Below are positions 10,334 to 28,208 of a stretch of 64,000 nucleotides of DNA, in pieces; the stretch's first letter is position 1; each line of letters starts with the position of its first letter. Position numbers and translations under genes: made by a program. This DNA is from Bacillota bacterium (GTDB taxonomy: Bacteria > Bacillota > Desulfotomaculia > Desulfotomaculales > Pelotomaculaceae): the NCBI GenBank assembly GCA_029555205.1, contig JAKPTB010000149.1:10993-74992 (forward strand), read 5' to 3'. The notes under the pieces were generated by a model. It searched no databases, was not told the DNA's origin, and saw only the letters and a list, made by a program, of their open reading frames with translations.

Positions 10334-11005
10334 TTGTGCGGGCGATTCACCCTGACCACGGACATTAAGACACTGAAAAATGTTTTTCAGCTGAAGGAAA
10401 ATATTTTTGATTATATCCCCCGTTACAACATCGCTCCAGGCCAGAATATCCACGTAATCATCAAGGAAGACGGCAGCCGGAAGCTCAGGCTGATGAAATG
10501 GGGGTTGATCCCCGGCTGGGCCAGGGAATCAAAAATTGGCTACAAAATGATCAACGCCCGGTATGAGACAATCGACACAAAGCCCGCCTATAAAGGACCA
10601 TTTCAGCACCGCCGCTGCCTGATCCCTGCGGATGGTTTTTACGAATGGTTAAAAAAGCATAAGACCAGGCTGCCCTTCAGAATCACCCTGCCCGGTGGTG
10701 TGCTTTTTGCTTTTGCCGGCATCTGGGACCGCTGGATATCCCCGGAGGGCCTCATTGTATACTCCTGCAGCTTGATTACTGCACCTGCCAACGAATACCT
10801 CAAAGAAATCCATGAGCGAATGCCGGTTATCCTGGACAGGGAACAGGACTATGAAACCTGGTTGGCTCCCGCTGAAACCGGCTCCTTAAAAGGACTCCTG
10901 GGAACTTACCGGGGGAAAATGGAAATCTATCCTGTCTCTTCACTGGTTAACTCTCCAAATCATGACCACCCCGGCCTGATCCAAAGGAGCAGCGATAAAT
11001 TTTGA
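10334..11005 (+). CDS. SOS response-associated peptidase (SRAP/YedK family)
   Basis: A TTG start places the catalytic Cys at residue 2 (M-CGRFTL). NARYET and RCLIPADGFYEW motifs are present, and a GGAGG RBS lies 10 nt upstream. Confidence 0.85.
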   Translation: MCGRFTLTTDIKTLKNVFQLKENIFDYIPRYNIAPGQNIHVIIKEDGSRKLRLMKWGLIPGWARESKIGYKMINARYETIDTKPAYKGPFQHRRCLIPADGFYEWLKKHKTRLPFRITLPGGVLFAFAGIWDRWISPEGLIVYSCSLITAPANEYLKEIHERMPVILDREQDYETWLAPAETGSLKGLLGTYRGKMEIYPVSSLVNSPNHDHPGLIQRSSDKF

Positions 11006-26244: not shown

Positions 26245-27516
26245 TCAGGCATCTCTGTGCGCTCCGTTCGGGTACTTGATTACACGGTGCTCCCATGTTC
26301 TGAGGGAAATGTATTCTTCGTCCCTGTCCAGGATGTACTGGGGCAGGACCGGAGTTTTGCCGTACCCGTTGGGGGTATTGATAATATAGGACGGAACCGC
26401 CAGACCTGAGGTGTAACCGCGCAGCTTTTCCATGATTTTTATGCCGTCATCGACACTTGTGATAAAATGACCGGTGCCCTTTACCTGTTTAGCGTGAAAA
26501 ATATAGTAGGGACGAACCCGGATTTTCAGCAGTTCGTGGTTTAGTTTTTTCATAATTGAAGGCGTGTTGTTGATTCCTTTCAACAGGACGGCCTGATTGC
26601 CCAGAACCACACCGGCGTTAACCAGCATCTCACAGGCAAGGGCGGCATCACGTGTAATCTCGCGGGGATGGTTAAATTGTGTATTAATATATAACGGTGG
26701 ATGTTTCTTTAATATGGAGCAGAGGTCACGGGTAATTCTTTGAGGCATCGTAACGGGTGTTCTTGTCCCGAGTCGCTTAATCTCCACATGCTTGATCCTG
26801 TCCAGTTCAGTCAGTAACCAGTCAAGGTAGCTGTCACTCAGCAAGAGGGCATCCCCACCGGTGATCAAAACGTCCCTTATTTCCCTGTTTTCCCTGATGT
26901 ATTGAAGCGCTTTCCGGATGGCGCTGTTCGATCTGTGCCTGTCGATTTCTCCGATATTGCGCCTGCGCTGGCAGTGTCTGCAGTACATGGCGCACTGGTT
27001 GGTAACGTTGATGATCAGCCTGTCCGGGTAACGCCGGGTTATACACGGGGCAGGGGAGGTATATTCCTCAGCCATTGGGTCACTTTGGCCCGTTTCCGCC
27101 AGTTCGTCGACACTTGGAACGGCCTGGGTCCAAATGGGGTCTGCGGCGTTCCTTTCATAAAAAAGTGAAGCATAATAGGGAGAGATGGACCAGCGGTATT
27201 TTAAACCCACCCTCTTTATGTTTATAGATGTTTCTTTGTTGATACAGAATATTTTGGAAAGTGTTACGACATCATGAATACGGTTTGACATTTGCCAGCG
27301 CCAGTCTTGCCAATCTTTCCAGGTTGCGTTGAATATATTCAAGATCCTTTTCTTGTTTTCCAGGATGTTGTTTTCCAGGTCAAAGCCGGTTTTGATAGTT
27401 TCTTTTTCTTCCAGATAGTCACTTATTCTCTCTTTCAATTCCGCTGCCCGGTTTAAGGCAATAACCGTCCTGTCATCCTGGGATACTGTTATTTGCTGCG
27501 GGGCATTTAATGACAT
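26245..27516 (-). CDS. KamA-family radical SAM aminomutase, probable glutamate 2,3-aminomutase
   Basis: CAMYCRHCQRRR cluster motif. The positions aligning by eye with LAM Asp293 and Asp330 read Lys (FHAKQVKG) and Asn (IINTPNGYGK). Confidence 0.6.
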   Translation of the reverse strand: MSLNAPQQITVSQDDRTVIALNRAAELKERISDYLEEKETIKTGFDLENNILENKKRILNIFNATWKDWQDWRWQMSNRIHDVVTLSKIFCINKETSINIKRVGLKYRWSISPYYASLFYERNAADPIWTQAVPSVDELAETGQSDPMAEEYTSPAPCITRRYPDRLIINVTNQCAMYCRHCQRRRNIGEIDRHRSNSAIRKALQYIRENREIRDVLITGGDALLLSDSYLDWLLTELDRIKHVEIKRLGTRTPVTMPQRITRDLCSILKKHPPLYINTQFNHPREITRDAALACEMLVNAGVVLGNQAVLLKGINNTPSIMKKLNHELLKIRVRPYYIFHAKQVKGTGHFITSVDDGIKIMEKLRGYTSGLAVPSYIINTPNGYGKTPVLPQYILDRDEEYISLRTWEHRVIKYPNGAHRDA

Positions 27517-27902
27517 TCTATCCCTCCTTATATTACTAACAAAAAGAATAACCCCGGTTAAACGAATCCGTTCCGGGGCAAGGAAAAAATGTCAAACAGC
27601 CGGTTGTTATCTACAACAGGGCAGTTCTCCTCCCTTTCCACGCTTGCGAAGTTAGCTGACGGATTCGGATTGAAAAGTAACCCTACGGAATCAGACCGGC
27701 TTAATTGAATAATTATTTAAGGAAGATTTTAATTCCTTGATAATCATTCTTGAGCCACTCAAGAGACCGATCCCGATTCACCCCAAAAACCTGGTTCCCC
27801 CGCTTCTAGAAGAATTAAGCGATCAGAGGATGTTATGCGATTATTATTATTTTCAATTTTTTGCCTGCAACTTATTATAGCATGATAAGTTGTTGGTTGC
27901 AA
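27517..27902 (-). promoter_or_regulatory. sigma-A promoter plus structured 5' leader of about 350 nt (unassigned riboswitch/attenuator candidate)
   Basis: On the minus strand: TTGCAA (27902..27897), 17-nt spacer, TATAAT (27879..27874). An upstream CCGAAUCCGU segment is complementary to ACGGAUUCG inside the terminator, which could act as an antiterminator. Confidence 0.55.
27541..27578 (-). terminator. leader terminator immediately upstream of the aminomutase gene
   Basis: On the minus strand: CCCCGG-aacggattcgtttaa-CCGGGG followed by ttattcttttt. It lies about 25 nt before the RBS. Confidence 0.7.
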
Positions 27903-27998
27903 GACCTGGTGCCAATGGTTTGCAACTTTTTGTATCTGTAAATTTATTGCCTAAAGGGATTTAGCGCCTGAAAAAAGAATTCTCTTAGCGGAGGTGCA

Positions 27999-28208
27999 TT
28001 GAATTTGGGTGAAAAGCGTTCGGGCAGGGTTTATGAGTTTACCCCGGGGAAGAAGCGAAAGCTGAAGTCACTGGATTACGTTTCACCCGAAAAAAAAGAA
28101 TTGCTGAGAAAGAGAAAACAAGCTAAGAAAGATAAGAGCGTCTTTTATGCGGGAGTGGGAATACTCATACTGTTGGTGGTCATTATTACACTTTTTAGGA
28201 TAAGATAA
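27999..28208 (+). CDS. small membrane-anchored basic protein, hypothetical
   Basis: 69 aa with a GGAGGTG RBS, a K/R-rich N-terminus and a single C-terminal TM segment. Confidence 0.5.
   Translation: MNLGEKRSGRVYEFTPGKKRKLKSLDYVSPEKKELLRKRKQAKKDKSVFYAGVGILILLVVIITLFRIR

Follow-up and report, generated by a model that had tools for sequence, protein, structure and literature searches.

A predicted c-di-AMP riboswitch of the ydaO class in the leader of a glutamate 2,3-aminomutase gene of a Pelotomaculaceae bacterium

The 64,000-nt stretch of DNA analyzed here (hereafter the window; positions 10,993 to 74,992 of contig JAKPTB010000149.1, assembly GCA_029555205.1, from a Bacillota bacterium of the Pelotomaculaceae) carries on its minus strand a gene, eam (26245..27516), for a 423-residue radical S-adenosylmethionine (SAM)/pyridoxal phosphate (PLP) enzyme of the KamA family, glutamate 2,3-aminomutase. 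Upstream of eam lies a leader of about 350 nt that contains a full-length match to the cyclic di-AMP (c-di-AMP) riboswitch aptamer of the ydaO type. The RNA and the protein each belong to a known family, the leader can adopt two alternative folds, and the riboswitch–eam linkage is conserved in related genomes; on these grounds, we consider it highly probable (roughly 0.9) that a single ydaO-class c-di-AMP riboswitch controls the transcription of a monocistronic eam.

The open reading frame (ORF; 27516..26245) carries the radical SAM motif CAMYCRHC (CAMYCRHCQRRR), in which C175, C179, and C182 are the cluster cysteines (CxxxCxxC). Against the NCBIfam model for glutamate 2,3-aminomutase, TIGR04368, it scores 703.5 bits, above the equivalog cut-off of 650. 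The models for lysine 2,3-aminomutase (LAM; TIGR03820, 455.4 bits, cut-off 525.4) and arginine 2,3-aminomutase (357.9 bits, cut-off 600) both remain below their thresholds. In a HMMER alignment with the structure of Clostridium subterminale LAM (2a5h; E = 4e-109, 45% identity), K387 stands opposite the PLP-binding lysine K337, and, with residues counted in that alignment, K343 and N380 stand opposite D293 (YYIFHAK versus YYIYQCD) and D330 (IINTPNGYGK versus VVDAPGGGGK), respectively. Asp293 and Asp330 of LAM bind the distal group of the substrate, and the Lys/Asn pair was reportedly described by Ruzicka and Frey in 2007 as the mark of glutamate 2,3-aminomutase (Eam). Both residues are unchanged across 19 homologs with identities down to 64%. 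They also occur in the C. difficile glutamate 2,3-aminomutase, which is the Eam that Ruzicka and Frey reportedly characterized in 2007 and which is 59% identical to the window protein over its full length, sharing CAMYCRHC and the GxGK PLP lysine. Compared with LAM, the window protein belongs to the same fold family and keeps the radical SAM motif and the PLP lysine, but appears to lack the zinc-binding C-terminal extension; for comparisons with LAM, the 2a5h alignment is the authoritative one. Because TIGR04368 is above its cut-off, the sister models are below theirs, and the K/N signature is present, the assignment as glutamate 2,3-aminomutase is correct in our reading, and catalysis on L-glutamate is what the sequence predicts. 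An earlier annotation of this DNA made from the letters alone (the original prediction) had described a 423-residue radical SAM KamA-family protein with Lys and Asn in place of D293 and D330 and had called it a glutamate 2,3-aminomutase; the profile alignment with LAM and Eam enzymes bears this out, with Asp at neither position.

The leader was scanned with cmscan against all 4227 Rfam families (region 27300..28100, matches listed to E <= 10). The c-di-AMP riboswitch aptamer (RF00379, ydaO/yuaA type) matches 27831..27625 on the minus strand over the whole model (positions 1–134 of 134); its 94.2 bits (E = 8e-23) exceed the gathering score of 38. RF00379 is the sole Rfam family to reach its gathering score anywhere in the window. 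Every consensus helix is made of standard pairs, the NC line of the cmscan alignment being free of non-canonical marks, and the conserved cores GGGGAACC, GGGGUGAAUC, and CCGAAUCCGUCAGCUAAC are all found in the aptamer. The segment CGAAUCCGU (27667..27659) sits inside the highly conserved core CCGAAyCCGUCAGCUAAC, and CCGAAUCCGU, a segment picked out in the original prediction, is a piece of the most conserved aptamer core. A pseudoknot between a hairpin loop and the 3' tail is a class feature of c-di-AMP riboswitch structures. As read from the sequence, CUUUUC in the last hairpin loop (27677..27672) is able to pair with GGAAAG in the 3' tail (27639..27634), both on the minus strand, and an equivalent loop–tail pairing with differing sequences is present in 20 of 21 relatives (e.g., CCCUUA/UAAGGG, UCCUG/CAGGA, and AUGUUUC/GAAACAC). 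Another candidate for the class pseudoknot, 5' UCCUC with 3' GAGGA, was dropped, as the covarying pair in the relatives consists of the hairpin loop and the 3' tail. The element also occupies the 5' untranslated region (UTR), in the order promoter, aptamer, terminator, and ribosome-binding site (RBS), with an antiterminator that draws on the aptamer core and tail. Thus, in score, in helices and cores, in pseudoknot, and in 5'-UTR location, the RNA is a member of RF00379. The leader holds a complete c-di-AMP (ydaO-type) riboswitch, for which selective binding of two c-di-AMP molecules and repression of the gene upon binding are predicted from the class.

RF00379 is the one genuine Rfam match in the leader. 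Other Rfam matches are at chance level (DLEU2_5, E = 5.3; GcvB, E = 3.9), and the Rfam models for T-box, L-box, thiamine pyrophosphate (TPP), SAM, cobalamin, and glycine riboswitches gave no match in the leader at E <= 10. A blastn search of a plasmid collection with the leader returned short matches to the aptamer core only, 47–51 nt in length.

The association of this aptamer with eam is conserved. An Eam profile scan of one genome per GTDB species identified more than 592 loci, of which the best 80 were taken for Rfam scans. The nearest of them belongs to a Pelotomaculum sp. (L001), which makes a Pelotomaculum-like origin of the window most likely. RF00379 is located upstream of eam, on the eam strand, in 30 of these 80 loci, with scores of 41–110 bits. 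The 30 loci derive mostly from Desulfotomaculum/Pelotomaculum-, Syntrophomonas-, and Desulfitobacterium-type Bacillota and include the genera Pelotomaculum, Desulfotomaculum, Desulforudis, Desulfosporosinus, Desulfitobacterium, Dehalobacterium, Syntrophomonas, Syntrophothermus, Thermosyntropha, and Gelria. Among the same 80 loci, no RF00379 element was found upstream of eam in Clostridioides, Paraclostridium, Lacrimispora, Tissierellia, or Fusobacteria; in the C. difficile locus neither a c-di-AMP riboswitch nor any other Rfam element precedes eam, in contrast to the window. Most of the riboswitch-bearing loci have terminator-like hairpins between the aptamer and the start codon. When 21 short eam-associated aptamers were aligned, 93.1% of the pairs were standard, compared with 82.9% in shuffles, and 14 pairs had changed on both sides. 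The covariation score of this alignment is 0.345; shuffles give 0.166, and slid partners do not exceed 0.121.

Transcription of the leader is predicted to begin at a sigma-70-type promoter on the minus strand (27902..27874), composed of a −35 element TTGCAA (27902..27897), a 17-nt spacer, and an extended −10 element TGcTATAAT (27882..27874). The promoter matches the consensus at 10 of 12 positions and has a TG ahead of the −10 element, from which its function is deduced, and the same promoter is kept in the nearest relative among the best 80 loci, L001, a Pelotomaculum sp. DTU098 metagenome-assembled genome (MAG) whose Eam is 95% identical in amino acid sequence. The start would lie near 27867, leaving about 36 nt ahead of the aptamer. 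Downstream of the aptamer are a spacer hairpin (27630..27591, −11.8 kcal/mol) and AUUUUUUC, together spanning 27630..27583; this segment looks like a weak terminator, but it makes up the apex of the antiterminator helix when the leader folds for read-through, and it may serve to pause the polymerase or to nucleate the antiterminator. Next comes an intrinsic terminator (27578..27540), whose stem-loop CCCCGGAACGGAUUCGUUUAACCGGGG (27578..27552; CCCCGGAACG / CGUU-UAA-CCGGGG) has a folding energy of −15.8 kcal/mol and precedes a U-rich tract, UUAUUCUUUUUG (27551..27540). A simple terminator scanner made no call on this terminator, which has a 3-nt bulge in its inner stem; direct folding recovered it. 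The end of the terminator stem is separated by 22 nt from the RBS, AAGGAGG (27529..27523), which lies 6 nt ahead of the ATG.

The aptamer and the terminator can be linked by an alternative fold. In the minimum free energy (MFE) structure of a transcript ending at 27563, the aptamer-core segment CGAAUCCGU (minus strand, 27667..27659) pairs with ACGGAUUCG (minus strand, 27571..27563), which lies within the terminator, as part of a long imperfect helix that also contains UUCG/CGGA, GCG/UGC, and pairing of the pseudoknot tail GGAAAGGG with UUUUUUCC. When the antiterminator forms, the U/C run of AUUUUUUC pairs with the aptamer tail GGAAAGGG. Most of the 5' arm of the terminator, with its loop, is thereby tied up by the aptamer's 3' half. 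Across the whole leader, enforcing the antiterminator gives a fold of −90.7 kcal/mol, nearly isoenergetic with the terminator fold (−91.3 kcal/mol), suggesting that the leader is bistable and that stabilization of the aptamer by its ligand could decide the outcome. The duplex between the aptamer 3' segment and the terminator 5' segment has an energy of −22.5 kcal/mol, compared with −14.9 kcal/mol for shuffles, 2% of which do as well. The promoter (TTGCAA-17-TATAAT), the terminator (CCCCGG..CCGGGG with a U-rich tract close to the RBS), and the mutually exclusive folds had all been anticipated in the original prediction, and each was recovered here.

The pairing of this riboswitch class with eam is already published in related bacteria. 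For Pelotomaculum thermopropionicum and Desulfotomaculum acetoxidans, Supplementary Table 2 of White et al. 2022 records that eam is preceded by Na+ and c-di-AMP riboswitches in tandem (PMC9337991). In a Dehalobacter aminomutase leader, the c-di-AMP riboswitch gives less than 5% read-through in the presence of c-di-AMP, and nucleotides of the aptamer core disturb the terminator only in its absence; a high level of c-di-AMP is taken as a signal of no osmotic distress, and β-glutamate is read as an osmoprotectant (White et al. 2022, PMC9337991). Full-text searches, whose coverage did not extend to the original gene lists of Block 2010 and Nelson 2013, returned no further paper linking c-di-AMP riboswitches to aminomutases. 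The Bacillus subtilis ydaO (kimA) leader and RF00379 have the aptamer helices, the cores, and the loop–tail pseudoknot in common with the window, and the ydaO class also shares its 5'-UTR location, terminator-type OFF platform, and association with an osmotic-stress gene (PMC9337991). The window differs from the class in an 80-nt expansion of one variable hairpin and in the gene that follows, which encodes an enzyme of compatible-solute biosynthesis, whereas the class genes encode a K+/osmolyte transporter or a cell-wall enzyme.

By analogy with this published work on the class and on the related aminomutase leader (PMC9337991), from which ligand binding, the OFF direction, and the osmolyte role are taken, we propose the following mechanism. 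Transcription from the promoter at 27902..27874 would first produce the 207-nt aptamer. When c-di-AMP is abundant it would bind the aptamer, which would then retain its core with CGAAUCCGU, its GGAAAG tail, and the 3' strand of its outer helix. With the aptamer locked, the CCCCGG...CCGGGG hairpin and its U-tract would form and RNA polymerase would terminate ahead of the RBS, giving the OFF state. When c-di-AMP is low, as a signal of osmotic stress, the 3' segments of the aptamer would instead pair with UUUUUUCC...CGGAACGGAUUCG, masking most of the 5' arm of the terminator and its loop; this antiterminator would permit read-through, and Eam would be made. Eam would then convert L-glutamate to β-glutamate, a compatible solute.

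Several observations weigh against this reading in part. (i) MFE folding of the whole leader does not give the consensus aptamer fold, and the z-score is only −1.63; such misfolding is usual for aptamers that depend on a ligand and a pseudoknot. (ii) Of 16 relatives given a crude test of antiterminator complementarity, only about 6 reach significance. (iii) The exact expression platform looks lineage-specific, and some relatives look translational. (iv) Ligand binding and the OFF direction in the window are argued from the class, and the physiological role of β-glutamate in these Bacillota is likewise presumed. (v) In L001, eam may escape riboswitch control through a promoter-like element inserted between the riboswitch and the gene.

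The alternative that survives best is that the riboswitch acts mainly, or also, on translation by sequestering the RBS. When the whole leader is folded to its MFE structure, the U-rich tract does pair with the purine-rich RBS region, and in two Syntrophomonas/Gelria relatives (L024:2446-2475 and L032:2449-2473) CCCUCC...GGGGGG hairpins that look RBS-sequestering lie 8–10 nt before the start codon, without a clear U-tract terminator. The latter suggest translational platforms for the same aptamer–gene pair. However, U-tracts are often predicted to pair with Shine-Dalgarno sequences, weakly and without specificity; 22 nt upstream of its RBS the window carries a canonical GC-rich hairpin with a U-tract; and the competing helix targets the terminator hairpin rather than the RBS. 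We therefore regard translational control of the window eam as unlikely.

The unusual length of the aptamer raises a second possibility. The aptamer looks long because of the 80-nt expansion of a variable hairpin (27690..27769, minus strand; closed by CGGG 27775..27772 and UCCG 27689..27686), at a site where the RF00379 model has 6 nt in the cmscan alignment. As a result it measures 207 nt, compared with about 130–145 nt in most relatives. On folding, the expansion forms one long, extended stem-loop (−29.5 kcal/mol, z = −4.95), and eam leaders of the Pelotomaculum/Desulfotomaculum type repeatedly have similarly large expansions at this position. One could imagine an added functional module, for example responsive to a protein or an ion, that would stand in for the missing Na+ aptamer by modulating the response to c-di-AMP. 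Among the relatives, aptamer length ranges from 128 to 238 nt, with the variation almost wholly in this hairpin segment (32–138 nt). The close relative L001 alone shares the expansion of the window; that of L004, a Pelotomaculum sp. MAG, is longer still (a P6+P7 segment of 138 nt) and has no sequence similarity to it. The idea of a conserved P6 module was rejected, since the window and L004 expansions are not alignable; together with length variation at one site, this points to a tolerated variable helix, and a functional module is very unlikely.

Given the published tandem eam leaders of P. thermopropionicum and D. acetoxidans (PMC9337991), the element could also be one half of a two-input gate responding to Na+ AND-NOT c-di-AMP. 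Those leaders, together with that of ablA in Dehalobacter sp. CF, share with the window the aptamer class, the gene family eam, and the bacterial clade, and also the logic by which the aptamer core competes with the terminator only without c-di-AMP (PMC9337991). L004 has the same arrangement, with an Na+-I aptamer (DUF1646, RF03071; 46 bits, 1983-2043) upstream of the c-di-AMP aptamer (86.8 bits, 2147-2384). The window, in contrast, has neither an Na+ aptamer nor a first terminator and is a one-input switch: RF03071, for which L004 served as a positive control, gave no match in 27300..28100 at E <= 10 and none in the whole window at its gathering score, and only about 36 nt separate the predicted transcription start from the aptamer. 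The tandem form occurs in 1 of the 30 riboswitch-bearing loci (L004) and the one-input form in the other 29. Membership in a two-input gate is therefore extremely unlikely for the window element.

Equally little remains of the proposal in the original prediction that the leader senses glutamate, β-glutamate, K+, or another osmolyte, either as a riboswitch outside the known classes or through protein-dependent attenuation. Its length and its mutually exclusive terminator and antiterminator folds fit that idea, and the named classes (T-box, L-box, TPP, SAM, B12, and glycine) are indeed absent, but the list omitted the c-di-AMP class, and the Rfam scan proposed as a test of novelty gave a clear, full-length match to RF00379, 56 bits over the gathering score. 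The same known family is kept upstream of 30 of 80 orthologs, with covariation among the 21 aptamers aligned, and the aptamer, the spacer hairpin, and the terminator leave no conserved RNA over, the extra length being the variable hairpin expansion.

The eam gene appears to be monocistronic, because its downstream neighbor, encoding a DUF255/thioredoxin-domain protein, runs convergently to it and the surrounding genes bear no relation to it. Upstream are a 69-residue ORF and genes for a flavin reductase-like protein, a macro-domain protein, and a sulfur-transport protein with TusA. The 69-residue ORF (27999..28208, plus strand) is divergent from the eam promoter; its N-terminal half is rich in lysine, its C-terminal segment, GVGILILLVVIITLF, is hydrophobic, and the ORF had no Pfam match.

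Further variation was seen around eam in the related loci. In L001 (743-955, aligned between window positions 27540 and 27517), 178 nt are inserted after the riboswitch terminator and ahead of the eam start codon. The two ends of the insertion carry a partial duplication of the RBS region (TAATATAAGGTGCGATG ... ATATTAAGGGAGGGATAGA), and a promoter-like TTTATG...TGATAAAAT lies inside it. A repeated mobile element was considered and rejected, as neither the window nor the 80 loci contain a second copy. In L042 (1393-1524), L058, L035, L045, L033, and L013, the aptamer is located 225–976 nt upstream of eam; an ORF or another element may intervene there, and the riboswitch may control an operon in which eam is not the first gene. 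T-box leaders lie near eam on the opposite strand in three loci (L005:1687-1953, L008:411-679, and L058:5615-5870, all minus), group II intron domains occur in L034 (5347-5640, minus), and a molybdenum cofactor (Moco)/tungsten riboswitch is found downstream of eam in L043 (4590-4714, plus), all without a link to eam.

On the protein side, many close homologs from an Eam-type cluster, 64–89% identical to a protein with the K/N signature, are labeled "lysine 2,3-aminomutase" or "YodO family" in their sources, including P0006, P0036, P0056, P0062, P0070, P0082, P0107, and P0116 among the protein database matches. Judged by their similarity to the signature protein, these labels are likely a systematic misannotation, and the Dehalobacter "ablA" of the published tandem-riboswitch experiment might be a case of the same kind.

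What looked like a new riboswitch thus becomes a member of a textbook class, a result that matters little beyond annotation in itself, and the widespread "lysine 2,3-aminomutase" label on the gene family is corrected to glutamate 2,3-aminomutase. The census of the best 80 loci adds a quantitative point, namely that one-input c-di-AMP control of eam is common and the published tandem arrangement is rare. It strengthens the view that these anaerobes would make β-glutamate as a compatible solute under the control of c-di-AMP, and would tie this second messenger to the biosynthesis of osmolytes and not only to the transport of osmolytes and K+.

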